Source: Verrucomicrobiota bacterium (GTDB taxonomy: Bacteria; Verrucomicrobiota; Verrucomicrobiia; Limisphaerales; JACDHS01). From it: a stretch of 64,000 nucleotides of DNA. Shown here one piece after another: positions 1 through 37,980 of the stretch (position 1 is the stretch's first letter; each line of letters opens with the position of its first letter). Under the pieces are notes generated by a model. That model was given only the letters and a program-made list of their open reading frames with translations. It was not told where the DNA came from and did no database searches. The position numbers and the translations under genes were made by a program. The stretch lies in NCBI GenBank assembly GCA_013820875.1, contig JACDHS010000007.1, positions 6,246-70,245 on the forward strand, given 5' to 3'.

Positions 1-3000
1 GTTATCGGGCATCAGTGAATTCTCAGAGTCCTGTCGTTGATCGATGTCCGCTTTGGGAACAGAGATCTCCCGGCCGGTTGCATCCGCGAAAATCAATAAC
101 TGCCCCTCTTCACGCCGGAATAGACCTGTGATCACCTGGTCATCTTTCAACGTCACATTGCTGTAGCGAAACGCGTGATCTACATTTCGATTCGGATCTA
201 AAATATCTTCCAACAACCGATCCAACCCGCGATTTCCCACGCCATCCAGTTGCGGACCGACGACAGTTCCCTGCCCATCAAGCTGATGACATGCCGCACA
301 GCTCTGCGCAAAAATCTGTGCTCCATTTCCTACCGACGCCACATCCGAATTGTAAGCCGCGCGTCGCTGATCAATGAGCTTTTGCTTTTCAGCGCTTAAC
401 GGACTCAAGCCCTTCGTCAACGCCTCAACGCGCTTCGCAAAGTTTTTTGGCTTTGCGGCGCCCACTCGATCCTTCACCGCTGCTTCCTGCAGGATACGAG
501 GCGAGGCTTTACCTTCTTCCACGGCACTCAACAACGCTTCCGCGCCTTCAGAACTGCTCGCTAGCGCGACGGCCAATTTGGTTTGCAATGTGCCAGAGGC
601 GCTTTCCATTGCCTGCACGAGAATGGACCGGGCGTCAGCCCGGTTTACCTGGGCCAATGCCTGCGCCGCCTTCTCCCGCAGCTTCGGTTGTGTCTCTGCA
701 TCCAACAAAACGGATCCCACAAATTGCAAATGAGCTGAGGCATTGAGGATCAACAAAGCTTTCGCTGCCGCCGCGCGAGCATCCACTCCGCCATTTTCAT
801 TTCGCAACATTTCAGCAATGCGCGCCTCCAGTCCCTGCAACCGAAAATGTTCCGCAAGCTCCGCCGCCGCGACCTGGCGTTTCTCAATCTGATTGGGACT
901 GATTCCCGGCAAAACAGCGACCACCGGCTCGAATTCTCCAACCGCAATCCACGCGTAGCCAGTGCCTGTATCCGCATCAATCACCTCAATGTAACCCTTC
1001 CTGGCGACATGCGCGCTCAAATCCCAATCCACTGGTTGCGCGACGTCATTCCGCGGCGCGAACGCTTCCATGAGCACCCGGTTCGATTCCTCTTCACGCA
1101 GGCGCACCAGGTTTTTTTTCTGGGCCGGTTTGCCTGGAACACCGTCATGTCCGGCAACCAGGAATTTCAACCGGACCGGAATATCGAAAGCTTTCGAGCG
1201 CAGAATGCCGGTCAATTGTTCGCTCCCCCGCGCAAAACTGGTGATGAAACGCACATTGCCAGCTCCATCCGGCAGGTTCCGACTTTCAAGCAACCACGGA
1301 TTCGTCGTGTTGTTCCCGGGAATCGGCACATTGCGCCATTCCAGTATATTGGGATCAATCGAAGCGAGCAGACGATCCGCCAATGCAGCGCCCCACTCAT
1401 TCACGGCCTGGGGAAGTTTTGTTCCACGTTGTGCCGTGCCATCGATCACCGACTTGAGCAAGGCGAGTTGAAAATCCAAATCGTCGGCGAACCTGGAGCG
1501 GGCTACTCGGGCCATATCGCTCAATTCTTCTTCCGGCGCGTGCCGTGCAATGTGGCGAAGATACTCGCTCATCTTCGGGCGGGTCTCGGTCACGCGCATA
1601 ACATGTTTCAAAAGGTATTGCCCTGACTGCGGACTCTTGACGCCGAGTGCCGCCTCCGCGATGGCGCGCGAATCTGCTTCCAGGAAATTCGCGGCGAGCA
1701 AATGCGCAAAATCGCGCGAGTCCAGGAGTTGATCACGCAATGCCATTCGCACGGTATGCAAGAGCTGCGAATCTTTCGGATCAATTGTTTGGCGAAACGC
1801 CAGGAGTGGTTGAATGTTTTCAAACTGCGGGTGACGCCCGAGCGCATCCGCAGCCGCCCGTTGCGCGTAAGCATCGGAATCGTTTAATCCCTGCAGAACC
1901 GCTTCACGAATCTTCGCCGTCCATTCTTTTGTTTCGGACGCAATACGCATGGCATGCACGCGTACCTCTCGCGTTTCGTTTTTTGCGAGTGTGAGGAGTG
2001 TTTTTTCGTCGAGCGCATTCAAGCGATGCAACACCCATGCGGCATGAATTTTATCGGATTCTTTTCCTTTTTTGGCGCTCAGAACTTTCTTCAGCGGTGT
2101 GATGGCACGAGAACCAAAGCTATCGCTCAATTCATTCATCGCCAGTAATCGGCGAGTAATGTTCGGGTGGCCAAGTTCAGCAACGAGACCTTTCAAATCC
2201 CTGGGCAACGCCAGGGCGTTATCCATCTTGCCGCCGGTATAAACGATTCGCCAAATGCGCCCCCGTTCACGGTCGCGGCCTGGATGATCCAGGGGTACTT
2301 CGTAATGGCCGATAATCCGATTGTAGAAATCCGCGACATACAATGCGCCATCCGGTCCGAGTTGAATGTCCACCGGACGAAACCAGGGATCATCGCACTC
2401 CACGAAATCGCCTTCCTCCTTAGCGATCCGCGTTGAGCCATGCTCCACGTAGGAATCGCGATTGATCCGGCTGGTCATCACGTTCCCAATGAATGTGTTG
2501 TGCTGGTACTCCGTCGGAAAATTGGTCGCGTGATAGTAAGCAATCCCAGCGATCGCCGTGGAACCATGTGAATGCGCGCAAATGTCCGGCGCATAGCCGA
2601 GTCCATCGTGCGGTTTGCCGAAGCTCGGATAATACCCGCCGCGCAAAAGCATATAAACCGGCGAACTATGGCAATCCGAAGACCAAAGATCTCCCAGGTG
2701 ATCAAAGTTCAAGCCAAACGGATTCACCTGGCCGTGTGAAAACTGTTCGATGCTTGAGCCATCCATTTTCACGCGATACACATTGCCAGAGTTCAGCTTG
2801 ATCTGGCTGCCGTCTTTTGCTGTAAGAGTGGAGTCATTGTTGAAGCCGTGATCCGCATAGAGCCAGCCATCGTAGCCGCGACGGAACGCGCCGGTCAGCC
2901 CATGCGCATCTTTTTCCCAGCCAAATTTTCCGAGGAACGTTTCCTTTTTATCCGCGCGCCCGTCGTTGTTTGTGTCTTCAAAAAAATAGATTTCGGGAAT

Positions 3001-3417
3001 GCTGAAGGCGAGAACGCCATTTTTGTACGGGTACAAACCGATAGGGATATTCAAGCCATCGGCAAAGGTCGTGATCTTTTGAGCGCGGCCATCCGTCGCA
3101 AAGTTTTCCAGCAGCATCACCTTGTCGCGACCTGGCTGGTCAAGCGGCGCAGGAAAGGGGTATTCGCGCGATTGCGTCAGCCACAGCCTGCCTTTTGCAT
3201 CGAAAGCGATGTTCATCGGCTTGCTGATTTCCGGTTCGCTGGCCACCAGTTGAATCTCAAATCCTGGGGGCAGCTTGAATTTCTTTAACTGTTCCGCCGC
3301 CGAAAGCGGTTCGGTTGTCCGGACCATTTCTGCAAACGGATCCTTCTGCGCCGAAACGGAAAAGCCGCTGACAAGTGCCGCGCAAACCACGCTGAACCAA
3401 ACGGAGTGAGGTTTCAT
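1..3417 (-). CDS. PVC-type membrane-bound dehydrogenase-domain / HEAT-repeat / cytochrome c (CxxCH) protein; the C-terminal end runs off the left window edge
   Basis: The minus frame with codon tops at 3417, 3414... stays open for all 1139 codons. It is absent from the ORF track because no stop lies in the window. ATG at 3417-3415 gives MKPHSVWFSVVCAALVSGFSVSAQ (signal peptide), then FKLPPGFEIQLVASEPEISKPMNIAFDAKGRLWL, the hallmark N-terminal motif of this Planctomycete/Verrucomicrobial family. An in-frame AQSCAACH heme-c motif is encoded at 286-309. Confidence 0.8.
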   Translation of the reverse strand, partial: MKPHSVWFSVVCAALVSGFSVSAQKDPFAEMVRTTEPLSAAEQLKKFKLPPGFEIQLVASEPEISKPMNIAFDAKGRLWLTQSREYPFPAPLDQPGRDKVMLLENFATDGRAQKITTFADGLNIPIGLYPYKNGVLAFSIPEIYFFEDTNNDGRADKKETFLGKFGWEKDAHGLTGAFRRGYDGWLYADHGFNNDSTLTAKDGSQIKLNSGNVYRVKMDGSSIEQFSHGQVNPFGLNFDHLGDLWSSDCHSSPVYMLLRGGYYPSFGKPHDGLGYAPDICAHSHGSTAIAGIAYYHATNFPTEYQHNTFIGNVMTSRINRDSYVEHGSTRIAKEEGDFVECDDPWFRPVDIQLGPDGALYVADFYNRIIGHYEVPLDHPGRDRERGRIWRIVYTGGKMDNALALPRDLKGLVAELGHPNITRRLLAMNELSDSFGSRAITPLKKVLSAKKGKESDKIHAAWVLHRLNALDEKTLLTLAKNETREVRVHAMRIASETKEWTAKIREAVLQGLNDSDAYAQRAAADALGRHPQFENIQPLLAFRQTIDPKDSQLLHTVRMALRDQLLDSRDFAHLLAANFLEADSRAIAEAALGVKSPQSGQYLLKHVMRVTETRPKMSEYLRHIARHAPEEELSDMARVARSRFADDLDFQLALLKSVIDGTAQRGTKLPQAVNEWGAALADRLLASIDPNILEWRNVPIPGNNTTNPWLLESRNLPDGAGNVRFITSFARGSEQLTGILRSKAFDIPVRLKFLVAGHDGVPGKPAQKKNLVRLREEESNRVLMEAFAPRNDVAQPVDWDLSAHVARKGYIEVIDADTGTGYAWIAVGEFEPVVAVLPGISPNQIEKRQVAAAELAEHFRLQGLEARIAEMLRNENGGVDARAAAAKALLILNASAHLQFVGSVLLDAETQPKLREKAAQALAQVNRADARSILVQAMESASGTLQTKLAVALASSSEGAEALLSAVEEGKASPRILQEAAVKDRVGAAKPKNFAKRVEALTKGLSPLSAEKQKLIDQRRAAYNSDVASVGNGAQIFAQSCAACHQLDGQGTVVGPQLDGVGNRGLDRLLEDILDPNRNVDHAFRYSNVTLKDDQVITGLFRREEGQLLIFADATGREISVPKADIDQRQDSENSLMPDN

Positions 3418-3535
3418 AATGAGTGAGATGCAATTCTGCATCGAACAAACTTTAATGCGCAACACTGGAAACAGGTTTGCGGGCGAAATTGAATCACTGG
3501 GATTCTCCTCGTTTACAGTCCCACATCCATGTCAC

Positions 3536-4291
3536 TCAGCTTCCCCTGTTCATCTGGCGCAGGAGGGAATACTTGAGATGCACTTCGCGGGCGCAGATCC
3601 GGGCGATGCGCCAGCCCTGGCCTCCATCGAGAAAGCCGCCTCGCAAGACGTAATAACGAAACCATTTAAACGCACCGCGCGCGTGCGGCGCGAGGAGAGT
3701 CGCGCGTTTGCCGGACTCGGACTGCATCTCTGCCCAGAGTTGCGCGTATTTCTGGCACCGCGCCCAATGATCAGCAACATCGCGAAAAGAATAATGGTGC
3801 AGGTCGCCACGAAGAGCCGTGATGGAACCGGCGATCTCAAGGCGTTCGTGAACTTTCCCGCCGCTGAAACGCGCCGTTGATTTTCGGAACAAGCGAACCA
3901 GACGATCCGGATACCAATCGCCATGCCGAATCCAACGGCCTTCATACAAAACACAACGCGGCATGCTGAACCCGGCAATCTCTCGCGCAGGTTCAATCTT
4001 TTTAAGAGCGGCAATTTCTTCCCGGAGCGTCGGTGAAAGTTCCTCATCAGCATCAATGCTGAAAACCCACTCGTTTGTGGCGAGGTGCAGCGCCAGATTC
4101 TTTTGGCCAACGTAGCCCAGCCAATCCTGATGAACGAACCGGGCGCAGAATTGCTGGGCGATGTTCTGGGTTCCATCCGTGCTGCCGGAATCGACAATCA
4201 GAATGTCATCGGCGAGATCAGCGCAACTGCGCAGGCAGCGCCCCAGGTTTTCCTCTTCATTGAGTGTGATAATGCAGAACGAAATTTTCAC
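3536..4291 (-). CDS. Family 2 glycosyltransferase (LPS core type, KdtX/WaaE-like)
   Basis: 251 aa. The N-terminus ISFCIITLNEEENLGRCLRS...ILIVDSGSTDGT and the SIDADE (DxD) motif are typical of GT2. Its start overlaps the upstream GT9 stop by 4 nt, which suggests one operon. Confidence 0.85.
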   Translation of the reverse strand: MKISFCIITLNEEENLGRCLRSCADLADDILIVDSGSTDGTQNIAQQFCARFVHQDWLGYVGQKNLALHLATNEWVFSIDADEELSPTLREEIAALKKIEPAREIAGFSMPRCVLYEGRWIRHGDWYPDRLVRLFRKSTARFSGGKVHERLEIAGSITALRGDLHHYSFRDVADHWARCQKYAQLWAEMQSESGKRATLLAPHARGAFKWFRYYVLRGGFLDGGQGWRIARICAREVHLKYSLLRQMNRGS

Positions 4292-5439
4292 AACGCAGGC
4301 AGCAGCATGCTGGAGTGAGGCTTGTTGAATCCCAGCACCCGCTTTTCAAACTCAACGAACACAGCGCGCGGCGACAGGGCTTCCATGCATTCGATCTTAT
4401 TGCGTTTGCTGATCGGACATGCCTGCAGTCCACACGGGACACACGGCCAATCGTGTTGCACCACGGTGATGCCTCCATGTTGTTGGATGCCACCCGTGCG
4501 ACCGTAAGGATTGTCCGTCTGCCAGCCATTGGGCCACGGACCCCAATTATGGACGAACGTGGGGCCGAACAATGCGATGAGTGGCACCTCCAGCGCGGCG
4601 GCCATGTGTGTCGCCACGGTATCCACCCCAATATAACCGTGCCCCCCGCGAATGGCAGCAGCGAGTTCCGTGAGGGTGAAAGGACGTGAAAAGGAATTCA
4701 GCCGGGTGTTACCCGCCGCCTTTTGAATGTCACTGAACTGCTGTTCGTCATGAGCGGACCTGGAACGGGTGAACACGGCTTTCATGCCGGTCTCGCATTC
4801 AACCAACGCGGCAAACTTCGCCCAGGATTCTGCCGGCCAGTACTTGTAACTCTGTCGCGTGTAAGGATGGAGCACCACGTAGTTGTTCCCCAGTTCGCCG
4901 CGCGTGAACGCTGCATCCTGCTGATCGAACTTAATCACCACACGCGGCTCCGGAGCAATTCCGAGTGGTTCCAATTGGCTTAATACAAGGGGAACAATGT
5001 GTTTGCTGTCGTCGTAGAGACGGCAGTCGGAAAGTAACCGCGTTTTCCATCGATCATGTCCGAGCAGATAAGAGAAGCCGATCGAATGGCGGGCCGCCGC
5101 GGCAGCGTAGATGGCAGTCCGGTCCGAGGGATTCACGCCAATGGCAAAATCGTAACGGCCAAACACTTTCGAAAAAGCCTTCGGACTGCCCAACCCCGGA
5201 GCAAGTGTGTGAACCCTGTGAACGTGGGGGTTCTTTTCCAAAATCCCTTCGGTCCCTTTGAACACCAGGTAATCCACGCGAGCATTTGGAAAACGTTGCT
5301 TGATGGAAAGAGCCAGGGGCGTGGAAAGCAGCACGTCGCCGATGTAGCGAAGCGATACGATCAGGAACTTGGAATCAGGCGATACGTTCAACGCAGTTGG
5401 TTTAATGATAACACAGTTTGCCGCCAATCCATTTTTCAT
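4288..5439 (-). CDS. Family 9 glycosyltransferase (LPS heptosyltransferase-like)
   Basis: 383 aa. FLIVSLRYIGDVLLSTPLALSIKQRFPNARVDYLV and C-terminal GVDTVATHMAAALEVPLIALFGPT are typical RfaF/RfaC-family motifs. The true start may be the TTG near 5391, which would remove the 38-nt overlap with the upstream ORF. Confidence 0.85.
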   Translation of the reverse strand: MKNGLAANCVIIKPTALNVSPDSKFLIVSLRYIGDVLLSTPLALSIKQRFPNARVDYLVFKGTEGILEKNPHVHRVHTLAPGLGSPKAFSKVFGRYDFAIGVNPSDRTAIYAAAAARHSIGFSYLLGHDRWKTRLLSDCRLYDDSKHIVPLVLSQLEPLGIAPEPRVVIKFDQQDAAFTRGELGNNYVVLHPYTRQSYKYWPAESWAKFAALVECETGMKAVFTRSRSAHDEQQFSDIQKAAGNTRLNSFSRPFTLTELAAAIRGGHGYIGVDTVATHMAAALEVPLIALFGPTFVHNWGPWPNGWQTDNPYGRTGGIQQHGGITVVQHDWPCVPCGLQACPISKRNKIECMEALSPRAVFVEFEKRVLGFNKPHSSMLLPAL

Positions 5440-5818
5440 TCAAAGAATGACCGTGCCGCAACTGTTCGTTCAGTCGCGCAATGTTATGGGCTGTCTTTGT
5501 CTGCATTCGCGCTATCAGTCTCTTTGGACTGTTCAGTTTCCATTTTCTTCGAAAATAAGCGCGATTTTCTGATTCGTAAGGGCGCTCCGCCTTGTCTTTG
5601 CGGATGGAGTTCTGGGTGATGGAACCGAAGTGATGAATGAAAGAGCAACCAGTTGTCGCGAGCTTGAAGCCCGCCCGCCGCGCTCGCAGAAAAAAGTCGG
5701 TGTCCTCAAATTGACCTATCCGAAAGTTTTCATCGAAGAAGCCAACGCTCTCAAAAACGGTGTTCCGCACCATGAAGCAGATTCCGTTGGCAACCCCGTG
5801 TCGCGCCACTCTTTTCAT
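5402..5818 (-). CDS. GT2 glycosyltransferase, C-terminal half only (split gene or frameshift)
   Basis: 138 aa. GICFMVRNTVFESVGFFDENFRIGQFEDTDFFLRARRAGFKL is the second half of a GT2 catalytic domain. The N-terminal Rossmann half is missing. Its ATG overlaps the stop of the 5815-6213 ORF (ATGA). Confidence 0.7.
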   Translation of the reverse strand: MKRVARHGVANGICFMVRNTVFESVGFFDENFRIGQFEDTDFFLRARRAGFKLATTGCSFIHHFGSITQNSIRKDKAERPYESENRAYFRRKWKLNSPKRLIARMQTKTAHNIARLNEQLRHGHSLNEKWIGGKLCYH

Positions 5819-6213
5819 TTCTTCACGAATTCACAGGCGTAACTCTGGAGTTCATAGTTCAGCTCACCCTCACGGATTGCAGGACTAATGATGTCCCACT
5901 TGTTTTGTTCCGCACAAACGACCAAACTATCCAGCCAGCCGGAGGACAACAGAACATCGTTGTTTAAAACAATCGTCCAACTCGCCGGAACCGCGCGCAC
6001 CCCCTGGTTCCAGGCGGCGGCACATCCGCAGTTCGTTTCATTTTGTACCAGGTGAATGTTCGGGATCCCACGAAGAAAGTCACCGCTCCCATCGGTTGAA
6101 CCATTGTCCACGATGACGATGCTCGCCTCATTCGTAACGGTCTGGCGCAAACTATCGAGGCACTGTTTTGTATAGTGCAGTTGATTAAAAACCGGAATGA
6201 CGATGCTGATCAT
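5815..6213 (-). CDS. GT2 glycosyltransferase, N-terminal half only (split gene or frameshift)
   Basis: 132 aa. ISIVIPVFNQLHYTKQCLDSL...IVIVDNGSTDGS...NCGCAAAWNQG...LNNDVLL is the nucleotide-sugar-binding half of GT2. It ends ...EFVKK-TGA, overlapping the ATG of the next ORF. Confidence 0.75.
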   Translation of the reverse strand: MISIVIPVFNQLHYTKQCLDSLRQTVTNEASIVIVDNGSTDGSGDFLRGIPNIHLVQNETNCGCAAAWNQGVRAVPASWTIVLNNDVLLSSGWLDSLVVCAEQNKWDIISPAIREGELNYELQSYACEFVKK

Positions 6214-6237
6214 CTCTGGATCAAATTCTTAAAGAGG

Positions 6238-6480
6238 GAAACCACAGATGGTGTGTAGGCGCAAAACGGAGCGCGGCGTAACCGCAAAGCGGTTCGTCGT
6301 TTCTATAGTTCTGATTTGTGCGAAGCATCAGCCGCAGCACGTGAGATTGTTCGAGCGGTTTGAAAATCTGAACGCCGCAATCAATGCAGTCCCCGCTGCG
6401 GCTGATCCTTCGGACACAGCCGCGCTCCGTCTCGGACCTGCTTTTTTTATCTGTGTCCATCTGTATTCATCTGTGGTTTC
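6238..6480. repeat. 243-bp nested-inverted-repeat (MITE/REP-like) element filling the GT2-msbA gap
   Basis: There are three perfect inverted-repeat pairs. GAAACCACAGATG at 6238-6250 pairs with 6468-6480. ACGGAGCGCGGC at 6266-6277 pairs with 6419-6430. ATCAGCCGCAGC at 6327-6338 pairs with 6395-6406. The right end carries three tandem ~10-nt motifs (CACAGATG type). Confidence 0.8.
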
Positions 6481-6490
6481 AATGAATTTA

Positions 6491-8506
6491 CTACGGTGTA
6501 TAAATTCCCTGGTTGCGGGCCATGCCGGCGAAAACACCATTCGCCTTGATCAATTTGCCGAAGGTGTCCTGCTCGACAATTTCGCCATCTTTCATGACGA
6601 GAATATGATCCATGTTCGCCAGAGTGGAGAGGCGATGGGCAATGCAGATCACCGTGCGATTCTCCGCAAGCCGATCAATCGCCGCCTGCACCTCTGCTTC
6701 GGCCGTGGGATCGAGTGAGGCTGTGGCTTCATCGAGCACGAGAATTGGCGCGTTCCGGACGAAAGCCCGTGCAATGCAAAGTCGTTGCCGCTGACCTCCG
6801 GAAAGCGTGATGCCGCGTTCACCGACGCGCGTTTCGTAGCCTTCGGGCAATTGCATGATAAAGTCATGCGCAGATGCCGCCTTCGCTGCCGCTTCCACTT
6901 CCTCGCGCGTAGCGCCTTCGCGTCCGCAGGTGATATTGTCCGCAACCGTTTGATCGAAAATGACAATGTCCTGGCTGACCAACGCCATCTGTTGCCGCAC
7001 ATCAAACAAGCTCAAATCGCGCAGGTCGTTGCCGTCGATCGTTATCCGGCCCTCTGTCGGATCGTAAAAGCGGAAAATAAGATTCACCAAGGTGCTCTTG
7101 CCCGAACCGCTTTCGCCAGCGATCCCCAGTCTCATCCCGCTGCGAACGGAGAAATTGAAATTCCGCACCACCGGCGTGTCGCGATAGGCAAAACTAACCT
7201 TATCAAAGGTGATGTCCCTTGCGAATTGGGGCAGCGGTTTGGCGTCAGCTTTTTCCAAAACAGATGGTTGTTGTTTGAAAATTTCAACTAACCGCCCGGC
7301 ACCAACACTGGCCTGCTGAAAGTAAACGTGCAGATGACCCAGTTTCTTGATCGGCGCGAAGATCATCGTGACGCCTGTTAGGAAGCCGATCAATTGCGGG
7401 ACGGTGACGCCGAAGGCAAAAATGTAAATGATCACGACACCCAACCCGAGCATCGAAATGGTTTCAACCGTGGGATTCACCAGTTCGCGGGCCTGGGTGC
7501 TTTTCATGCCGATGCGCAGCAGTCTTTGATAGATGCTACTGAAGCGCTGCATTTGCATTTTTTCCAGGCAGAACGCCTTCACCACGCGGATGCTGGTATA
7601 AACTTCCACCAACAAACTGTCCTGCATCATTCCCTGGCTGATCCCGGAAGTAATGGCAGCGCGGACTTTCTTACCCAGGATACGAATCGGTATGACGGTG
7701 AGTGGAGTAAAAAACACGGCCAACAACGTCAGCTTCCAGTTCACCGCGAAAAGCGCGATGGAAATACAGATAATCGAAACCGGTTCTTTGATCAGATCTG
7801 AAAAACCGAGGCTAAGGCAGCGATAAAGCGCGCCGGTATCGCCATTCACCCGCATCAACAATTCCCCAATCGTTGAGCGATTGAAAAAATCCATTGAAAG
7901 CGTGTTTAGTTTGGCAAGCAGGTTGAGCCGAAGATCGCGAATAACCCGTTCGCTGACCCAGGCCATGCAGTAACTGCTCAAATAGCCAATGTAACCTCGA
8001 AAAGCCACGAGGATCGGCAGGAACAAAAGGCCGCCAATCAACTGCTTCACGTCAATGGAACGTCCCGCCAACGGCAACCACGGATCGACGGTTGCATCAA
8101 AGCGGTTGATAGCCCGTCGTAAAACCCCCGGCCTCTCAGCCTCCTTTTTGCTGTCCAGATACTCACCTGTTGCAGCCAGCATTCCGCTGTCCATGAGATT
8201 TGGATCCACGATAACTTGTAGAACGACATTGTTCGAAACCAGCAACATGGGCTGCCTGCCATCGGCTACACTGAGATGCGGTTCCGCGTTTGTCGAAACG
8301 ACGATATTGAGATTCGCATTGGTTCCTACGATGAGGCGAGTGTCGTTGCGGGGTGCAAGGCGTTCGAACAGGGTTTTGGTGGCCCAGACAAAGCTTGCAT
8401 TGGATATTCCAAAAAGAACCCCCAGCACGATTCCCGCAATAAGGCGAAACCAGTACCGGCGCAAGTAGGGCCAGCCAAAATGGAAGATCTTCAGGGCGTC
8501 ACGCAT
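6491..8506 (-). CDS. msbA: ABC transporter permease/ATPase, MsbA-like lipid A/LPS-core exporter with an enlarged first periplasmic loop
   Basis: 671 aa with a six-TM exporter domain. It has Walker A GESGSGKST, the signature LSGGQRQR and Walker B ILVLDEATASLD, and it sits in an LPS glycosyltransferase operon. Confidence 0.85.
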   Translation of the reverse strand: MRDALKIFHFGWPYLRRYWFRLIAGIVLGVLFGISNASFVWATKTLFERLAPRNDTRLIVGTNANLNIVVSTNAEPHLSVADGRQPMLLVSNNVVLQVIVDPNLMDSGMLAATGEYLDSKKEAERPGVLRRAINRFDATVDPWLPLAGRSIDVKQLIGGLLFLPILVAFRGYIGYLSSYCMAWVSERVIRDLRLNLLAKLNTLSMDFFNRSTIGELLMRVNGDTGALYRCLSLGFSDLIKEPVSIICISIALFAVNWKLTLLAVFFTPLTVIPIRILGKKVRAAITSGISQGMMQDSLLVEVYTSIRVVKAFCLEKMQMQRFSSIYQRLLRIGMKSTQARELVNPTVETISMLGLGVVIIYIFAFGVTVPQLIGFLTGVTMIFAPIKKLGHLHVYFQQASVGAGRLVEIFKQQPSVLEKADAKPLPQFARDITFDKVSFAYRDTPVVRNFNFSVRSGMRLGIAGESGSGKSTLVNLIFRFYDPTEGRITIDGNDLRDLSLFDVRQQMALVSQDIVIFDQTVADNITCGREGATREEVEAAAKAASAHDFIMQLPEGYETRVGERGITLSGGQRQRLCIARAFVRNAPILVLDEATASLDPTAEAEVQAAIDRLAENRTVICIAHRLSTLANMDHILVMKDGEIVEQDTFGKLIKANGVFAGMARNQGIYTP

Positions 8507-8629
8507 TGATTTTCAAACGTTTATAGTTGGGGGTTTGCATATGAGATAGCAATTCGGATTTTAACCGCTAAATACACGAAACATGCGGAAGAACAAAAAA
8601 GATTGTTCCACTGAGGTGCTCCATCTCGC

Positions 8630-8972
8630 CTGATTTGCGGTCAATCCGGTCTGTCGTGAGGCGTTTTACAGCGAATATTGGTCTTCGACAGGCTGTCGTG
8701 AAGCGATTTACGGCAAATATCGGTCTACTACAGGCTGTCGTGAGGCGATTTACGGCGAATATCGGTCTACTACAGGCTGTCGAAGGACGATTTACGGCGA
8801 ATATCGGTCTACTACAGGCTGTCGTGAGACGATTTACGGCGAATATCGATCTACTACAGGCTGTCGAAGGACGATTTATGGCGAATATCGATCTACTACA
8901 GGCTGTCGAAGGACGATTTACGGCGAATATTGGTCTGCTACAGGCTGTCGTGAGGCGATTTACGGCGAATAA
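8630..8972. repeat. Tandem array A1: 42-bp unit, about 8 copies
   Basis: The anchor CTGTCG recurs at 8651, 8693, 8735, 8777, 8819, 8861, 8903 and 8945, exactly 42 bp apart. The unit is roughly CTGTCGTGAGGCGATTTACGGCGAATATCGGTCTACTACAGG, with two alternating variants (GTGAGG / GAAGGA). Confidence 0.95.
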
Positions 8973-9005: not shown

Positions 9006-9740
9006 CTATTCCACCAACCCATGCTTCCGATTTTGCAGGACCGCCCATGAATAGATGGCAAAATCGGCCCAGTTATCGATGACCAGTTTCTGCAGGGTTT
9101 CCGCATCAAGCGCTGTAAAATTGTCAGCGTCAGTTTTGGGCGCGACGCGTTCCGCTTTTTGCAGCGTGATTTTCCGCGGGAGAAGTTGGTTAAGCCGTTC
9201 CACTTCCGCAGTGAACGATTCCTGCAATCCAACGAAAGCGTAATGTTCCAGGTTTTCCAGCGACTGCTTCAACGTTTGGATCGTTACATTTTGGCAGTCA
9301 TCGAAGTTGTGGCTATTAACGATGGAACGAGAGAAGTAAACGGCGAGATGATTCGGAAATGAGTGGCTCGGATCCTGCGCAATCTCCTTGAGTGAACGTT
9401 CCAGGAAAAGTGTGTGCAGGTTCTGCCGGGGCGTTCTTCGGACATGAAAATAGAACGAGACGAAGCGTGCAATCGGGTTCCGCACAAACGTCACGTAGAT
9501 TGTCGGCTGGGGAAAAAAGGTGTGGATGCCGTACCAGACTTGATGGCCATAAACCAAACGAATCTTTGCTTTGCGCTCTTCGGGCATCTGGCTCAATTCA
9601 TTACTCATTGTTTCCGAAGTATTATTGGGGCCATGAGCAAAATAAATTTCCTCGTCGCTGTAAACTTCGCGAAACGCCTTCAACAATGTAGATCCCGCCG
9701 TTTTAGGAATGTGATGAAAAATGACAACTGGCTCGCTCAT
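9006..9740 (-). CDS. Sulfotransferase family protein
   Basis: 244 aa. The N-terminal IFHHIPKTAGSTL is the PAPS 5'-phosphosulfate-binding loop of carbohydrate-type sulfotransferases. Confidence 0.75.
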   Translation of the reverse strand: MSEPVVIFHHIPKTAGSTLLKAFREVYSDEEIYFAHGPNNTSETMSNELSQMPEERKAKIRLVYGHQVWYGIHTFFPQPTIYVTFVRNPIARFVSFYFHVRRTPRQNLHTLFLERSLKEIAQDPSHSFPNHLAVYFSRSIVNSHNFDDCQNVTIQTLKQSLENLEHYAFVGLQESFTAEVERLNQLLPRKITLQKAERVAPKTDADNFTALDAETLQKLVIDNWADFAIYSWAVLQNRKHGLVE

Positions 9741-9843
9741 CTCGAAAAAAACATAACGGTCACCGCTGGGTTTCCAACCAAATTTCGCAGCTTGATTTTC
9801 CTTGCATGGAGTCGGCGACGTATGGTTTTGGTGTAGTCAACGA

Positions 9844-10656
9844 ATGAGTTCTCCAAAATATTTTTTGCTGTGCGGGGTAGGCCGCTCTGGAACCACCGTC
9901 CTTCGGAAAGCTCTGGGGCTTCATCCGGCTGTTTATTACAATGGAATGGAGAACAACATGGTTCAGGATGTGATCGGTTGTGCGCTCCGAAATTGCACCA
10001 TGCCATCGCGCAAAGAATCAATGGTCGTTTCCCAGGAGCAATACGACCGCACTTTCCTTCGTTTATTGAATGACCTTTTGTGGCCGGAAGAGGACAAGCG
10101 GGAAGCAAGGACGTTGATGTGCGCTATCAATCCTTCTTGTGACATTTCGGATTATCTCGTTCAGGTGTTTCAAAACTGCAAGTTGGTTTACCTGGTGCGC
10201 AACGGCATCGAGGTGGTTGCCTCGCGGCAGCGCTTCGCCTCTTTTTCAGAACGCTCTTTTGGCGAGCAATGCGATGTCTGGACCCGCTCTGAAGGCATGC
10301 TGAATTGGGGGCGCCAACATCCGGATATCTTCAGGGAATTCCGTTATGAATGGTTGGTGGACGAATCACAGATTTACGGCCGCTTTTCTGAACTATTCGA
10401 CTGGCTTGGATTGGAGCAGACCGATATTTGCGCGAAACACGTGCTCTCCAACCGGTATCATCCAACACTCGATCCCACGGACACTAAAGTGGTCGAGGCA
10501 GATTACGCGACCCAGGATGACGCCGTCCGAAAGAAGATGAGCGACGAGCGCATGGATCGATGGAAATCGTGGCGTCCTGAAGAAATGCAAATTTTCGAGC
10601 AAAAATGCGGCCCACTCATGAATGAACTGGGATATGCCTTGCCCTGGAAAACGTAG
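9844..10656 (+). CDS. Sulfotransferase family protein
   Basis: ATG at 9844 gives MSSPKYFLLCGVGRSGTTVLRKAL (P-loop-like PAPS-binding motif), and YLVRNGIEVVASR is a 3'-phosphate-binding region. The track ORF from 9802 only adds an unlikely 14-aa extension. Confidence 0.8.
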   Translation: MSSPKYFLLCGVGRSGTTVLRKALGLHPAVYYNGMENNMVQDVIGCALRNCTMPSRKESMVVSQEQYDRTFLRLLNDLLWPEEDKREARTLMCAINPSCDISDYLVQVFQNCKLVYLVRNGIEVVASRQRFASFSERSFGEQCDVWTRSEGMLNWGRQHPDIFREFRYEWLVDESQIYGRFSELFDWLGLEQTDICAKHVLSNRYHPTLDPTDTKVVEADYATQDDAVRKKMSDERMDRWKSWRPEEMQIFEQKCGPLMNELGYALPWKT

Positions 10657-10818
10657 AGCACGTAGTGGCAGGTTTTCCAACCTGCCAGTTCGAACGACTT
10701 TCCAGTTACGCCGCGCTCCGAATTTGTGCAATCTCACCCGTTTAAATCACACCCGCGGGAGAATGCAGGCTCTCGCAAGGCTTGCGAAGCAAATCGATAA
10801 CCGCTTAAGTTTCTTATT

Positions 10819-11766
10819 ATGTCGAGCAGTTCGCCAGCGGGCGCAATGGATCGCAGTCTAACTTTGTTCCACACACCGCAGCTCTCCTTTATAATTTTTG
10901 CGAGCCCTAAATCCGGCACCACCTGGATGCAGCGCCTTTTATCCGCTCACCCAGCGGTTCTGTGCGCTGAATCACGCCCGTTCGGTAATTATTTTCATCC
11001 CAATCCCCTTTCGAACCCGCATTTGTCGCTGCAAAAGTATGTGTCCATTCTCAGCACGCATTTTGCGCCCATGGAGAACGCGCTCAAACTGCCGGAAAAC
11101 AAGTTCGAGAACCGCGTACTGTTCAATTTCATTGACGCGCTTGGGGCCACTGCCCTGGCAGTCGCAAATAAAAAGGTTTACGGAGAGAAACTGACGCCTT
11201 TCCGCGGCACTGGACTGGAAGTGGTTGAAACTCTCAGCCTATACAATCCGAATGTGAAGTTTGTAAACCTCACGCGTGACGGTCGTGATGTGATGGTGTC
11301 CGGCGCAGCTCAATGGTTGAATCTGCGGGTGAAATCGGCCACGTCCGATTCAGAACGAATGAAGTGGACGGAAGCCCTGGCGCAGCGGTCCATTTATCAC
11401 GAAGATTTTGAAAACTTTATTTCATTGTGGACCGATGCGGTCGCTGCCGGATTACACGCGCAACAACTCTTCGAGAACTATCTGCCGCTGAAATACGAAA
11501 CTTTCCTCTCCGATCCCATTCAGGAAGCGCAAAAGTTGCTCGAGTTCCTGGAGGTCGAATCGAGCCCGGAGATCGTTCTATCCTGCGTGCAAGCGGCATC
11601 GTTTGAAAAGCTTTCGGGTGGTCGCACTCCGGGGGCTGAGGATCCGAACAGTTTTTTCCGTAAGGGCATTTCCGGCGATTGGAAAAACTGGTTTACTGAA
11701 AGTGAAACGCGGACTTTTATAGAACGAGCCGGTCATTTGCTGACACAATCAGGTTACAGTCTCTAA
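10819..11766 (+). CDS. Sulfotransferase domain protein (Sulfotransfer_1-like)
   Basis: 315 aa with FIIFASPKSGTTWMQRLL (5'-PSB), LTRDGRDVMVS (3'-PB) and C-terminal FFRKGISGDWKNWF, the classical cytosolic-type sulfotransferase motif set. Confidence 0.85.
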   Translation: MSSSSPAGAMDRSLTLFHTPQLSFIIFASPKSGTTWMQRLLSAHPAVLCAESRPFGNYFHPNPLSNPHLSLQKYVSILSTHFAPMENALKLPENKFENRVLFNFIDALGATALAVANKKVYGEKLTPFRGTGLEVVETLSLYNPNVKFVNLTRDGRDVMVSGAAQWLNLRVKSATSDSERMKWTEALAQRSIYHEDFENFISLWTDAVAAGLHAQQLFENYLPLKYETFLSDPIQEAQKLLEFLEVESSPEIVLSCVQAASFEKLSGGRTPGAEDPNSFFRKGISGDWKNWFTESETRTFIERAGHLLTQSGYSL

Positions 11767-19300: not shown

Positions 19301-22027
19301 TTAAGAATTTTTTACCGGTTTTCTGTGAAGAACTGGTTTGAGATATTGGCCGGTGTAAGATTTTGCGCATCGGACAATTTCCTCCGGTGACCCTTGCGCG
19401 ATGATTTCTCCTCCTCCGCCGCCCGCTTCAGGTCCGAGATCAATCACCCAATCAGCTTCCGCGATAAGATCAAGGTTATGCTCGATGACGATGACGGAAT
19501 GTCCGGCATCCACAAGGCGTTGAATGACCTCCACCAAACGCCGCACATCGGCCATGTGCAGCCCGATTGTCGGCTCTTCCAGGATGAATAGTGCTGATTT
19601 CTCCTTCTTGATGGGCAGGCCGAGTTCCGCTTGCTGCGCCTGCGCCCTGGTTTTTAGCTTCTGGTCAGATGCTGGATTCTTCAGGCCGCTAAGCAAATGC
19701 GTGACGAGCTTGATCCGTTGCGCTTCACCGCCGCTGAGCGTCGGGCTGGTCTGGCCAAGTTTCAGATAATCAAGGCCAGTATCGCGCAACGCCTCCAGCG
19801 GACGACGAATCTTTTGAAATGCACCGAAGAACTCCAGCGCTTCCGCGATGCTGAGTTCCAGGACTTGCGCGATGTTCTTGCCCGCGAATTCGATATCGAG
19901 GGTTTCGAGGTTGAAGCGGCAACCTTCGCATACTTCACACCGCACAAAGGACGGCGGCAGGAAATTCATCTCCAGTTTGATCGTGCCGGCGCCCTGGCAT
20001 TCCGGGCAACGCCCCTGCACGCTGTTGAAAGAGAAGCGACTTGCTGAATAACCGCGCAAGCGCGCTTCCGGAAGTTGCGCGAACAGGTTGCGAATCTCGT
20101 CGAAGAAACCAACGTAAGTCGCTGGAATTGACCGAGGCGTCCGGCCAATCGGCGCCTGGTCCACTTCGTAAATGGCAGAAATCAGATCGTCCCCTTTTGT
20201 GATTTTCCCGAACTCGCGATCCCCTGATGTATCGCCTTTCAGTTTCGCTCGGAGCACCGGAAGCAGACAGTCATGAATCAACGTGCTCTTGCCCGAACCG
20301 CTCACGCCGGACACCGCCACAAACCGGTTCAACGGAATTTCTACGGTCACATTCTTAAGGTTGTGCAGTGACGCTTTATTCAAAACCAGCCGGGCAGATT
20401 TTTTTTCGACAGGACGCCGTGTGCCGCGATGCGGGAAACGCTTGTGCTCGCGCAGACACTGACCGGTGATTGAGTTTTTGTTCCGCTTCAGCTCAGACAA
20501 AGTTCCCGCTGCCATTACTTCGCCGCCATGAACGCCTGCGCCCGGCCCCAGATCGATCACGTAATCTGCGCGTCGCATCGTTTCTTCGTCATGCTCCACA
20601 ACGACGAGCGAGTTCCCCCGCTTCTTCAGGAGGTCGAGCGCGTGTAGCAGATGCTCATTGTCGCGGGCATGCAAACCGATGGTTGGCTCATCGAGGATAT
20701 AAAGGACACCGGTGAGGTTGGATCCAAGTTGTGCGGCGAGCCGAATGCGTTGCGCTTCACCACCCGACAAAGTGGTCGCACTGCGGCCGAGTTGCAAATA
20801 GCCAAGCCCGACTTCACGAAGAAATTTCAGCCGCTCATGAATCTCCGGCAAAATATCGCGCGCAATTTCCGCTTCGCGACCTTGGATTTTCAATTCAGCA
20901 AAAAATGAAATTACGTCATCCACGGCGGCGTTGCCGATGTCAACAATGGTAGGACAGGCGCTTTTAGTGGAAGGAAACAGGCGAGACGCCTGTTCTACTC
21001 TAAGGCGCACCGCACGCGCGATCGGGTTTAGGCGGGTGCCGTTGCATTCCGGGCAAAGCTCGCGTTTGCCTTCCTGCCAGCCGAACCATGATTCTTCGAT
21101 GGCATCCGCGCGCGCGCCGCGGTCCACCTCCGGCAGATAAAAAAGCTCACCAAACCCGCGACAATTTCCGCACCAGCCTTGCGAGGAATTGTAGCTAAAG
21201 TTTTTCGGGTCGAGCACTGCGAAAGAATCACCGCACCTCGGACAAGCGCGATGCGTGGAATGAACAGACGTTTTACCATCCTTGCCGAGTGCGTAAAGCG
21301 TGCCGTTACCGAGGCGCAACGTTTCATCAATCAGTTGCTGCGGAGATTTCTCCCATGCCCTGGCTCGTTTCGCGAGCACGCCAGTGACGATTTCCACATC
21401 GTGTTCCTTGAACCGATCAAGCCGAAACGGTTCGCTCGTCGAATACATTTTCCCATCGGCGCGGAGTTGTTCGTAATCGTGCTTGGCAGCCCATTGCGCC
21501 ACATCGCTGTGAAAACCTTTCCGATTTTTCACAACCGGAGCGAGCAGGGACAAGTTTCCGCGACGTTTCACTTCCTCCTGAAGTTTGCGTCCGATCTCAT
21601 CACGCGTTTGCGCTTGAACCGCCAGGTCGCATTTCGGGCAGAACTGCGTTCCGAGCCGGGCATAGAGCAGTCGCAGGAAATGATATACCTCGGTCACTGT
21701 GGCAACGGTGCTTTTGCCGCCGCCGCGGGAAACCCGTTGTTCAATGCTCACCGTCGGCGGAATGCCGGTGATGAGATCCACATCCGGGCGGGCCATTTGC
21801 TCAACGAACTGGCGGGCATAGACGTTCATGGAATCCAAAAACCGGCGTTGCCCTTCCGAGAAGAGAAGGTCAAATGCCAGCGTGCTTTTTCCCGAACCGC
21901 TCACGCCGGTAATGACGACAAACTTCCCTCGCGGAATCTGCAGGGAAAGGTTTTTCAGATTGTGTTCACGCGCGCCAATAATGGAAATGGCGTCACTGAC
22001 AGCGAACTCTGTTTTGTCGTCCAACAT
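19301..22027 (-). CDS. uvrA: UvrA-family excinuclease ABC subunit A (closer to canonical; short insertion domain)
   Basis: 908 aa with two ABC modules (GVSGSGKSTL twice, LSGGEAQR twice). Zn-finger cysteines are CPKC...CPRC, CGNC...CPEC and CPEC...CEVC. SIEQR..GGGKSTVATVTEVYHFLRLLYARLG aligns with E. coli UvrA as I recall it. Confidence 0.85.
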   Translation of the reverse strand: MLDDKTEFAVSDAISIIGAREHNLKNLSLQIPRGKFVVITGVSGSGKSTLAFDLLFSEGQRRFLDSMNVYARQFVEQMARPDVDLITGIPPTVSIEQRVSRGGGKSTVATVTEVYHFLRLLYARLGTQFCPKCDLAVQAQTRDEIGRKLQEEVKRRGNLSLLAPVVKNRKGFHSDVAQWAAKHDYEQLRADGKMYSTSEPFRLDRFKEHDVEIVTGVLAKRARAWEKSPQQLIDETLRLGNGTLYALGKDGKTSVHSTHRACPRCGDSFAVLDPKNFSYNSSQGWCGNCRGFGELFYLPEVDRGARADAIEESWFGWQEGKRELCPECNGTRLNPIARAVRLRVEQASRLFPSTKSACPTIVDIGNAAVDDVISFFAELKIQGREAEIARDILPEIHERLKFLREVGLGYLQLGRSATTLSGGEAQRIRLAAQLGSNLTGVLYILDEPTIGLHARDNEHLLHALDLLKKRGNSLVVVEHDEETMRRADYVIDLGPGAGVHGGEVMAAGTLSELKRNKNSITGQCLREHKRFPHRGTRRPVEKKSARLVLNKASLHNLKNVTVEIPLNRFVAVSGVSGSGKSTLIHDCLLPVLRAKLKGDTSGDREFGKITKGDDLISAIYEVDQAPIGRTPRSIPATYVGFFDEIRNLFAQLPEARLRGYSASRFSFNSVQGRCPECQGAGTIKLEMNFLPPSFVRCEVCEGCRFNLETLDIEFAGKNIAQVLELSIAEALEFFGAFQKIRRPLEALRDTGLDYLKLGQTSPTLSGGEAQRIKLVTHLLSGLKNPASDQKLKTRAQAQQAELGLPIKKEKSALFILEEPTIGLHMADVRRLVEVIQRLVDAGHSVIVIEHNLDLIAEADWVIDLGPEAGGGGGEIIAQGSPEEIVRCAKSYTGQYLKPVLHRKPVKNS

Positions 22028-23120: not shown

Positions 23121-26100
23121 TCAGGAAAGCACCTGGCGTAGCGCACGCCCAGTATGGCTCCCTTCCTGGAGCAACACCTCTTCCGGGGTGCCGACCGCGA
23201 CGATTTCGCCACCGCGATCCCCAGCCTCCGGCCCGAGGTCGATCAGCCAATCCGCACATTTGATGAGTTCAAGATTGTGTTCGATGACCACGACAGAATT
23301 CCCGGCTTCGACGAGTTTATGGAACGCTGCCGTGAGCACGCGAACATCGTCGAAATGCAAACCGGTTGTGGGTTCATCAAAGAAAAACATTGTTGGTTTG
23401 CCGGAGCTTTGCTGACGACCGAACTCGGCCAGGTGACTGACCAACTTTAACCGCTGACTTTCCCCGCCTGACAACGTGTTGATCGGTTGGCCCAGCCGCA
23501 GATAGCCCAGTCCAACTTCCTGCAACAGTTGCAGCGCACGAATGGCGTGTTGCGCGTGACGGCTTTGCGTGAGGCTTTGCAGAAAATGAATCACCTGGTC
23601 GGCACTCGCCTCCAGCAGATCGGCAATGTTCCATTGCACACTTTCCATTCGGGAATTTCGGAGCGACGAACCGGGCACGCTACCGTCCACCTTGATTTCG
23701 AGAATGTGCGAGCGATAACGGCGCCCGTCGCAATCCGGGCAACGAATAAAAACATCGCTGAGAAATTGCATCTCGATTTTCTCGAAGCCAGCACCGCGAC
23801 AACGCTCGCATTGGCCCTGGCTGGAATTGAAACTGAACGCACTGGCATTCAACCCACGTTGTTTGGCGACTTCTGTCTGTGCAAATATCTCGCGAATATC
23901 ATCAAAGGCCCCGATGTACACCGCCGGATTGGAACGAGGCGTCCGGCCAATCGCTGTTTGATCCACCAACAGGACGCGCCCGATGCTTTCGAAGCCGCGC
24001 AGATCCACTTCGGAATGCGGAGCGCGAAGCGCGGACTTTTCGTCGCCGTCATTCGCGGAATCATCCTCCGTCGTTTCAATCTCTGACGGAGCTTGCGCGT
24101 TTATCCTTTCTTCCAATGCAGGCAGGAGCACATCCCGCACAAGCGTGGATTTGCCCGAGCCGCTCACACCCGTGATGCAGACAAATCGGCCAAGAGGAAT
24201 TTCGACGGTGACATTACACAGGTTATGCGCCGTTGCACCGGTGATCTTTAAGGCAGGACAGGCATCCTGCCTGTCCCTCGGAGCTGATGCATCGCGAGAA
24301 ACTAAAGAGCGGTTGTCCACGTTTCTTGCGCTTCGAGCTCTTTTGCCATTCTGGGAGAGGCAGGATGCCTGTCCTGCTTTACGGCGTTCCGGCACTTCTA
24401 TCGCCTTGCGACCGCTTAAGTATTCACCCGTAAGCGAACCTTTCGCTTTAAGAATGTCACGGTAGCGTCCCTGGAAAACAATCTGTCCCCCGGTTTCGCC
24501 ATGGCCCGGGCCGAGATCAATTATCTCATCCGCAGCCCGCATCACATTCGCTTCGTGTTCAACGACCACCACGGTATTTCCGACATCGCGCAGGCGTTGC
24601 AGAATTTCAATCAGCCGATCGGTATCACGCGGATGCAATCCGACACTTGGCTCATCCAGGACAAACAACGTATTCACCAGGCCCGAACCAAGACAGGTGG
24701 TTAGGCTGACACGTTCGGTTTCGCCCCCGGAAAGCGTGCGGGTCGGTCGATCCAGGGTTAGATAACCCAGTCCGACTTCGTTCATGAACGAAAGTCGCGC
24801 CCGCACTTCATGCAATGCCAGCGTTAAAGGATCGGACGTCCTGGTGTGCTTGCGTCCAGCCGCCAGCGATTCGATAAACTGCAACGAATCGCGCAGGGAA
24901 AGCTGGTAGAAATCGGAGAGAGATAACTTCGCTGGTCGCCTTTTCCCGGAAGACTCAGAGAGGCGGGGTGTCTCTACTACTTTGTAGAGCAACGTGTCTG
25001 GTTGGAAACGCGCCCCGTGGCAATCGTCGCAGGGGCGGTAACTTCGGTAACGCGAGAGCAACACGCGCACATGCATTTTGTAGGATTTGGATTCCAGCCA
25101 GCGGAAATAACCTTTGATCCCGTACCAGGCTTTCGGCCACTGATGATTGTCATCCATGCCGTAGTTCGGTTCGCCGTTGATGACCCAGTCCTGGAATTCG
25201 TTCGGCAGATCGCGAAACGGAACATTGGTGGGGATATGACGTTTGCGACAGAATTTCATCATGTCATCCTGACACTCGGCGCTTTGACCGGTTTGCCACG
25301 GCTTCACCACTCCGCCCGCTAATGTTTTCGAACGATCCGGTATCGCCAGGTTGTAATCAATGGTGATGACCCGTCCGAACCCGCGACAGGTCGGACAAGC
25401 GCCGAGCGGATGATTGAAACTGAACAAAGCGGGAACCGGCTCGCGATAATCAATGTCGCACTCCGCACAATGCAAGCGGTTGGAAAATGTTTGCGTGCGG
25501 GTTCCAGCTTTCGAGTGGCCGGCCTCCGAAAAATGTAAAGTGAGTTTCCCTTTTCCGAAATGATAGGCCTGTTCGCACGCTTCAATAAAACGATGCCTAT
25601 TGGTCGGCGCGATTTTAATACGATCCTGAACGACCGTCAGCACAACAGCTTTCAATGCGGAAAGTTGAGCCGTCGCCTCTTCCAGACGTTTGATTTCACC
25701 CTCCACCAGCAACCGTTGGTAACCTTGCTTTGCCACCAGGTTAAGCGTTTCGGTGAGCGGCAGCTTTTCGGACAGCGGCAGTTTGAACGTGATAAGAATT
25801 TCGGAATGCGCGGCGGAGTTTGGCGCTCCGCCCTGGCTCACCGTTTCCCAAATCTTCTGTGGCGAATCTTTTGTCACAGGCCTGCCGCATTTTCGGCAAT
25901 GCAATTGTGCCAGGTGCGCCCAGAGCACTTTTGCGTAATCGCAAATCTCCGTCATCGTTCCGACAGTGGAGCGAGTCGTTTTGACGGCGTTCCGCTGTTC
26001 GATGGCGATGGCCGGTGGAATTCCCTCAATGCTATCGACCTGTGGCTTGTCCATCCGATCGAAAAACTGGCGGGTGTAAGGCGAGAACGTTTCAATGTAG

Positions 26101-35800: not shown

Positions 35801-36088
35801 GGGTTGGTGTAAATCGTTGGTAGGGAATGGGATGTTGATGAGGATAAGGTTCCTCGCCCTTTCCAGAAGCGCTTTTTATGAACTTCAACCCGCGCTGTTC
35901 CGACGAGAAGCCTGTTTGGTCCCACCGATTGTTCGAAGAGGCTTCGGCCAGTTTCCGAATCTTCGCACTTCGGTTTGTGGGCCAATTCGTGTCAAACTTC
36001 GAAACGGCAGAAACCCTCATCCATAAGTTCACAAAATCTTTTCTTCCCTTTTGGGTGTGGCTTTTTAGAGTTTGCCACTTGTTTATAT

Positions 36089-37948: not shown

Positions 37949-37980
37949 GATCCTGGAGAAGAACTCACCTTTACACTCCA

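Follow-up and report, generated by a model that had tools for sequence, protein, structure and literature searches.

Intergenic palindromic tandem arrays with a common 41-43 bp period in an uncultured verrucomicrobial lineage

The window analysed here is a 64-kb stretch of contig JACDHS010000007.1 from an uncultured Verrucomicrobiota bacterium, a metagenome-assembled genome (MAG) with Pedosphaera/Limisphaerales-like relatives. It carries three tandem arrays, A1, A2, and A3, whose coordinates, periods, and copy numbers come from Tandem Repeats Finder (TRF) run over the whole window. These are its sole long-period tandem repeats; no other repeat has a period above 18. All three are intergenic. 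The common 41-42 bp period that a preliminary description had assigned to them from the sequence is borne out by TRF.

A1 spans 8651-8971 (period 42, 7.6 copies, 89% matches, score 482) and lies between two minus-strand genes. On one side is an MsbA-like ABC transporter gene (6491-8506; Pfam ABC_membrane and ABC_tran; identical to P0001), with its start codon 145 bp from A1 and the array on its upstream side. On the other is a sulfotransferase gene (Sulfotransfer_2; 9006-9740), with its stop codon 35 bp from the array. A lipopolysaccharide (LPS) glycosyltransferase cluster comes next after msbA. This placement between a sulfotransferase and an msbA-like gene had been proposed before, and gene calls and Pfam agree with it. 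A2 spans 35478-35776 (period 41, 7.3 copies, 93% matches, score 507) and occupies a divergent intergenic region. A VanY-like peptidase gene (34313-35314, minus strand) reads away from it on one side; the ATG at 35314 is inferred, and the longest open reading frame (ORF) reaches 35464. On the other side a transketolase-family gene (36089-37948, plus strand; Pfam and the gene call of a short-read contig, L008) starts the pyruvate dehydrogenase (PDH) cluster. A3 was detected twice by TRF, at a short period (46148-46369; period 42, 5.3 copies, 86% matches, score 304) and at a super-period (46138-46385; period 83, 3.0 copies, 83% matches, score 347). It lies between two plus-strand genes, a MqnA-like menaquinone biosynthesis gene (45058-45945) that ends 193 bp before the array and the glutaminyl-tRNA synthetase gene glnS (46858-48810; Pfam), at least 473 bp downstream. 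The surroundings of the arrays are ordinary chromosomal genes. No transposase, integrase, par, rep, cas, or phage gene is present among the annotated genes of the window, and the window has no tRNA or tmRNA gene. No regulatory role of the arrays for the msbA/LPS genes, the PDH cluster, or glnS has been demonstrated.

The units of the three arrays differ in sequence. The 42-bp unit of A1, CTGTCGTGAGGCGATTTACGGCGAATATCGGTCTACTACAGG, is imperfectly palindromic about two dyad centres, one near position 21 (ACGGCGA) and the other where adjacent units join (ACAG-G-CTGT). A register listing places the CTGTCG anchor at exact 42-bp steps from 8651 to 8945, as the preliminary description had it. That description also reported two interleaved unit variants. 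Both variants are real, one TGAGGC-like (T) and one AAGGAC (A), but along the array they run T,T,T,A,T,A,A,T, which is not a strict alternation. The variable sites are concentrated at unit positions 7-11. Degenerate additional units seen by eye beside A1 match no better than random 90-mers and were dropped. The 41-bp unit of A2, TTTGTGAGTCACGGAAGTGGTGAAAAATATATTTCACGTGA, contains the palindromes GTGA-G-TCAC, GTGAAA-N6-TTTCAC, and TCACGTGA. A3 consists of about six units of 41-42 bp arranged with an 83-bp super-period, and each unit carries GAGAC-G-GTCTC, a T-run, and TTTCCGGAAA.

The short-read Logan contig L008, from the same sample and equivalent to window 35747-46556, reproduces A3 at 100% identity. 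Because this independent short-read assembly matches A3 completely, the arrays are not assembly artefacts. L008 begins inside the last, near-identical units of A2, and other short-read contigs end inside A1. At A1 the window has exactly one 42-bp unit more than NCBI record JAITZQ014411080.1 (7.6 versus 6.6 copies) with identical flanks; the intergenic gap containing the array is 499 bp in the window and 457 bp in that record, the compared stretch being L003 9578-9856. The two versions also differ by one 1-bp indel somewhere in window 1-8506. The 77,138-bp contig appears in the protein database in a 77,220-bp version, and the 82-bp difference would fit +42 at A1, a presumed +41 at A2, and the 1-bp indel. 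Given the one-unit difference between contig versions, the copy number of A1 is assembly-dependent or variable in the population, and that of A2 probably is too. With head-to-tail units and a copy number that differs between assemblies, A1 has the generic properties of a variable number tandem repeat (VNTR) or minisatellite.

The period recurs in relatives. Loci were fetched around the MsbA homologs nearest to that of the window, 158 kb in total including the window MAG, and tandem repeats were counted if their period was 20 bp or more and their copy number 2.5 or more. The control was 80 AceE-centred loci (1.38 Mb) from about 20 Verrucomicrobia at 64-87% identity and many other phyla. In the clade, locus L006 (MsbA identity 70%) has an array with period 42/21 that TRF calls at 1884-1998; it is longer and more degenerate than that call, really extending over about 1860-2210. 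Its second half is inverted, the loop changing from AGACC to GGTCT while the TTTTCC/GGAAAA stems are retained. Locus L007 (67%) has two arrays, L007a (4018-4305, period 42/84) and L007b (20340-20750, period 43/85). L099 (65%) has one at 9854-10160 (period 42/84), and L222 one at 10163-10504 (period 43/85). Some 300 bp upstream of L007a is a tRNA-Arg(ACG) gene (L007 3641-3717), and tRNA genes are well known as preferred sites at which mobile DNA inserts.

All 8 long-period arrays of the clade have a base period of 41-43 bp or its double of 83-85 bp. None of the 13 long-period repeats of the control loci has such a period; theirs span 21-219 bp. The difference, 8/8 versus 0/13, is significant by Fisher's exact test (p = 4.9e-6). 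The length constraint suggested earlier from the window is therefore stronger than first seen. Averaged over seven families, the base period is 41.9 bp, or 4 x 10.46. Array density is about 1 per 20 kb (7 in about 138 kb, counted without L222, which was found by targeted search), and arrays make up about 1.5% of the sampled clade DNA. So far the class is known only from a small group of uncultured Verrucomicrobia.

Another case of regular spacing came from a metagenome scan with the L099 motif GAATTC-YR-GAATTC, in which the matches listed were dominated by an unrelated AT-rich organism (L102-L181; JGI contigs SAMEA3663013__coassemble_* and OBLI01*). This organism has a dispersed palindromic repeat, GGAATTCTAGAATTCC, in many short arrays, with 4-10 copies per contig among the matches listed. 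The array periods among these matches group near 20-22, 29-33, 40-46, and 51-54 bp, roughly multiples of 10.5 bp.

Besides their period, the arrays share palindromic construction. Symmetry was measured as the identity of an array to its own reverse complement, compared with arrays rebuilt from permuted units. A1 scores 0.63 against 0.45 +/- 0.04 in the permuted-unit control (z = 4.3) and A2 0.64 against 0.46 +/- 0.04 (z = 4.9). Dyad symmetry is also strong and above shuffles in L006, L007a, and L007b, making it significant in five of the six arrays tested. A3 is the array without it: array-wide dyad symmetry is absent (z = 0.2-1.1), and only the short palindromes GAGAC-G-GTCTC and TTTCCGGAAA occur. 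In most units the dyad centres are about 19-21.5 bp apart. The 85-bp unit of L007b is one unit followed by an inverted copy of the same, and identity is accordingly higher at period 85 than at 43, both in L007b (96% versus 74%) and in L222 (93% versus 72%). L099 has a perfect 14-bp palindrome, GAATTC-YR-GAATTC, whose centre flips among CA, TA, and TG.

Some of the families are related to each other. L007a and L007b, which reside in one genome, have units that align in the same order over their full length (z = 7.1, 0/150 shuffles). L006 and A3 resemble L007b less closely, in having a TTCCGGAAA motif with a hairpin after it. The layout common to L006, A3, and L007b is TTCC(N)GGAAA, about 5 nt, and then a short hairpin with a variable stem sequence. 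The arrays had been described as sequence-unconstrained, which overstates the case: every unit is assembled from short palindromes, and L007a is homologous to L007b. This relatedness does not generalise further, either in a profile search (below) or in blastn-short, which gave no cross-family matches between units. A census of three successive TTCCGGAAA motifs in viral contigs returned in-frame coding repeats only, such as a 14-aa QPWEALSGIRPTAA repeat protein, and was abandoned.

The arrays are labile on an evolutionary scale. The three nearest relatives, with MsbA homologs 80%, 70%, and 67% identical, have no array upstream of msbA; the gap there is just 120-165 bp, and the upstream neighbour is different in each. 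A 41-43 bp array is likewise missing from all 80 AceE-centred loci; provided gene order is maintained, which was not verified for each locus, their flanks would be expected to take in the sites of A2 and A3. Across the arrays found, tandem, divergent, and convergent intergenic regions are occupied alike. Movement is also seen. L222 is a second contig from the same sample as L007 and at the same 10.5x coverage; it was found via P0122, with a spurious 174-aa ORF through L007b as the protein query. Its array is 86% identical to L007b over 344 bp in the opposite orientation. Because the two arrays share a degenerate terminal unit despite unrelated flanks, this array was copied as a block. REP/BIME-type repeats, be they selfish or domesticated, move in this manner.

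A candidate for mobilisation is found on the same contig. L222 encodes a 150-aa IS200/IS605-family Y1 transposase (8076-8528, minus strand; Pfam PF01797, NCBIfam NF033573, 64 bits) 1.6 kb from the array. The gene is flanked on both sides (7790-8830) by direct copies of a 230-bp element, 86% identical, each itself an inverted repeat. This arrangement resembles a REPtron, in which a transposase gene of the type associated with repetitive extragenic palindromic (REP) sequences, a RAYT, lies between two REP-derived elements (REPIN-RAYT-REPIN). A WYL-domain gene adjoins the transposase gene. No relatives of the transposase were found in the other fetched loci (about 2 Mb).

We propose, with about even confidence, that A1-A3 are non-coding palindromic minisatellites of a lineage-specific class, acting at the level of DNA and behaving like REPs and bacterial interspersed mosaic elements (BIMEs). 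Copies within an array are kept alike, arrays diverge from each other, and whole units are gained and lost. The identity of the enzyme and the cause of the fixed length we infer. A unit of about 42 bp would comprise one short hairpin-type palindrome and a linker of about 23 bp bearing a second short palindrome. Units would pair, often as a unit with an inverted or diverged partner, to give the 83-85 bp higher-order repeat. The constant period would be an architecture inherited within one fast-diverging superfamily, probably set by whatever seeds or amplifies the units. The best candidate for this enzyme would be a Y1 (HUH) transposase of the IS200/IS605 type, or a RAYT-like one, acting on single-stranded hairpins. 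Later expansion and contraction may proceed by slippage or unequal recombination, with homogenisation inside arrays and quick divergence between them. Any influence on supercoiling, protein binding, or promoter spacing in the host would be a secondary matter, as has been argued for E. coli BIMEs.

The comparison with REPs and BIMEs rests on several likenesses. BIME-2 elements are tandem REP and inverted-REP copies that are well conserved at each locus and whose number differs from one locus or strain to another, and the E. coli Y1 transposase TnpA-REP cleaves and joins single-stranded BIMEs and can add units in vitro (Ton-Hoang et al., PMC3333891). REPs are documented in the Planctomycetes-Verrucomicrobia-Chlamydiae (PVC) group (PMC3733652). 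Like BIME-2, the arrays are intergenic, non-coding, and made of imperfect palindromes in tandem inverted pairs, with near-identical copies in variable number at a locus. They also share a relation to Y1 transposases, which for the arrays is the one gene 1.6 kb away in L222, and as a class they are comparably abundant (about 1 per 20 kb). The 20-40 nt imperfect palindrome typical of REPs is present in A1, A2, L006, L007a, and L007b, while A3 has short palindromes only. The alternating, tandemly amplified, variable clusters typical of BIMEs are represented by the inverted pairs of L007b and L222, the flips in L099, and the unit difference at A1.

There are also differences. A REP is one consensus with hundreds of dispersed copies, whereas array units are private, seen at two loci at most, and not met singly in the window or the fetched loci. 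In the window and about 2 Mb of fetched loci, the L007b family occurs at two loci and the units of A1-A3 at one each. Arrays keep to 41-43 or 83-85 bp, whereas BIME linkers vary in length (PMC3333891) and the period of E. coli BIMEs depends on them. REPs lie mostly downstream of coding regions and are recognised by a GTAG/CGTC tag (PMC3733652), whereas arrays also lie between divergent genes (A2, L007b, L222). On the best reading, the REP/BIME-like kind is known, and what is new is the unusually strict unit length across private sequences.

Several observations weigh against this interpretation. Searches of the window with tblastn and Pfam turned up neither a Y1 transposase nor any other mobilising gene. 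The L222 transposase gene has a flanking repeat different from the array units, so that its link to the arrays is one of proximity in one case, and neither it nor anything in the window provides the cognate RAYT flanked by the same REPs that accompanies REPs elsewhere. The A1, A2, and A3 units have no solitary or second copy in the window or the fetched loci, and the A1 unit has no further copy in JGI metagenomes or viral contigs. A six-frame query of A1-A3 against 5.8 billion predicted proteins gave no match, a weak test, as the window's own arrays were never called as genes. The GTAG/CGTC tag is not consistently found at the palindrome foot and is missing from A2, L006, L007a, L007b, and L099 units; GTAG occurs in A1 alone (minus strand, CCTGTAGTAG), and CGTC in A3, inside or beside a palindrome. 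An nhmmer profile built from the relatives' units did not detect A1, A2, A3, or L099, and given this miss a single superfamily that would include A1, A2, and L099 is not demonstrated. Finally, TRF at the same settings gives the E. coli K-12 gltP-yjcO BIME (L223 25835-26433; 5.3 copies, 97% identity) a period of 113 bp, made up of inverted REP 37, linker 36, REP 34, and linker 6. BIMEs thus keep no constant period, and likeness to them only partly explains the one of 41-43 bp.

A possible but rather doubtful alternative is that the period itself is selected, the arrays forming a helically phased DNA scaffold. In B-DNA, four helical turns take up 42 bp, and about 21 bp, or two turns, separates the two dyads of a unit. 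Palindromes on one face of the helix could then line up dimeric or structure-specific proteins (nucleoid proteins, gyrase, ParB/SopB-like or ribbon-helix-helix-like proteins), or bends in phase could accumulate from unit to unit. Both the mean base period of the seven families and the spacing of the dyad centres agree with this. So do the many palindromes with loops of 0-1 nt (TCACGTGA, TTTCCGGAAA, GAATTCTAGAATTC, GAGAC-G-GTCTC), which suit protein dimers on duplex DNA better than RNA hairpins, and the occurrence of arrays in every type of intergenic region regardless of transcription direction. There is a precedent in sopC of the F plasmid, with 12 direct 43-bp repeats, each containing a 16-bp inverted repeat bound by SopB (PMC3177203). 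Its period is nearly equal, its copy number similar, and its palindrome likewise one of protein size per unit. It differs in being a single array per replicon beside sopAB, whereas here many chromosomal arrays of differing sequence lie away from partition genes and without plasmid similarity. Unit sequences vary from array to array, which means that one sequence-specific protein could not recognise all arrays, and no candidate binding-protein gene adjoins any of them. Nor are the arrays kept at matching positions; their copy number drifts, and A3 lacks extended symmetry. Selection on phase would equally permit 21, 31-32, 52-53, or 63 bp, none of which was seen. The structural role proposed in the preliminary description is unsupported on these grounds: arrays are absent at msbA in three relatives, copy number is unstable, and a block was copied near a Y1 gene. 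A stronger version, in which units of any sequence are maintained for their period by having two dyads per 42 bp on one DNA face, we consider unlikely. If it were true, a Pedosphaera-like clade of Verrucomicrobia would hold hundreds of intergenic arrays (extrapolated from about 1 per 20 kb). These would be geometry-defined docking sites for a structure-specific nucleoid or topology factor, a bacterial chromatin-positioning satellite.

It is likewise improbable that these are ordinary neutral minisatellites, arising by independent slippage of local palindromic segments, with the period a by-product of hairpin size and replication mechanics and with neither mobility nor function. Unit sequences private to each locus, with no second copy of any window family found, would be expected of such repeats, as would absence at matching positions in relatives and an unstable copy number. 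That the periods of seven independent families should fall within a 3-bp span is nevertheless very unlikely without a shared cause, as the Fisher test above indicates. The L007b family also occurs at two unrelated loci with a common terminal unit, and L007a and L007b are homologous across the whole unit. Among recognised bacterial repeats of this sort, mycobacterial interspersed repetitive units (MIRU-VNTR) and pneumococcal BOX elements are intergenic tandem units of about 40-100 bp, with strain-variable number and some secondary-structure potential. MIRUs and BOX modules are sequence families at many loci per genome, and MIRUs are oriented with operons and contain small ORFs overlapping the flanking genes. 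The arrays resemble both in being intergenic tandem units of variable copy number and differ in sharing a period, not a sequence. Neither MIRU nor BOX is known to have a single fixed period common to unrelated unit sequences.

Action at the RNA level, with transcribed stacked hairpins serving mRNA stability, attenuation or termination, or with tandem small RNAs as in some REPs, is very unlikely. A1, A3, and L099 do lie 35-200 bp downstream of a same-strand gene, fold energies are moderately below shuffled-unit controls in most arrays (z = -2 to -4), and the L007a hairpin has a GTAA loop of the GNRA type. A2, L007b, and L222, however, lie between divergently transcribed genes. For A1 the fold z is near 0, and the strand of A1 that folds more stably runs antisense to the genes on either side. 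Palindromes with loops of 0-1 nt cannot fully form in RNA. Rfam gave no family at gathering score in the whole window; A1 gave nothing even at E <= 10, and a permissive scan of A2 and A3 gave only far-below-threshold matches to generic long-hairpin models (miRNA models for A2). A ribozyme or small-RNA tandem array has no support. Arrays of promoters or terminators were considered as well: A2 has one weak 9-of-12 promoter-like match per unit on the minus strand, and A1 and A3 have no terminator-like or promoter-like signals.

A coding repeat was rejected. The arrays have no Pfam match and no homologs among the 5.8 billion proteins, and periods of 41, 83, and 85 are not multiples of 3. A1 is open in four of six frames because its unit has no stop codon in those frames; the 139-aa ORF that had been set aside as incidental is just that. 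Last, remnant plasmid or phage iterons, a plasmid centromere, or a CRISPR-like array can be dismissed as effectively refuted by gene context: the geometry resembles that of sopC and the regular spacing of partly palindromic repeats resembles CRISPR, but the three arrays, unrelated in sequence, all fall in one 38-kb stretch of housekeeping chromosome without par, rep, integrase, or cas genes, with no similarity to 72,556 plasmids and, for A1, no match in viral contigs, and the full 41-42 bp units run head to tail without unique spacers or cas domains in the annotated genes, as the preliminary description had already concluded for CRISPR.

Other features of the window were recorded along the way. 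Three sulfotransferase-family genes (9006-11766) lie upstream of the msbA/glycosyltransferase cluster (3536-8506), with A1 at the cluster boundary. At that position the relatives with MsbA identities of 80%, 70%, and 67% lack the three-gene cluster, suggesting that it is a lineage-specific island for envelope modification. Two UvrA-like genes lie on one strand within 5 kb (19301-22027, 908 aa; 23121-26294, 1057 aa) and are probably a canonical UvrA and a class II UvrA paralog. A separate family of small repeats occurs in and around the PDH operon (38414-38494, 41742-41809, 43135-43150). Here (TGGAGTRT)n stands opposite (ACTCCAWT)n, the two giving long hairpins in which each arm is a tandem repeat of 8 bp, and G-U wobble pairs favour plus-strand RNA. 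One site is within an ORF called as an LplA-like ligase, and the rest are between the E1/E2 and E2/E3 genes. This family was not found in the clade relatives.

In practical terms, short-read assemblies break at the arrays and report assembly-dependent copy numbers, which affects MAG contiguity in this group. If confirmed genome-wide, the arrays would constitute a bacterial repeat class whose members have in common a geometry, with 41-43 bp units, 83-85 bp dimers, and internal dyads, instead of a consensus sequence. In an uncultured verrucomicrobial lineage such repeats might take up some 1-2% of the genome. Such a class would bear on how REPs and BIMEs originate and diversify and on whether Y1 transposases measure unit length. 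It would also provide a natural test for selection on helical phasing in bacterial intergenic DNA.

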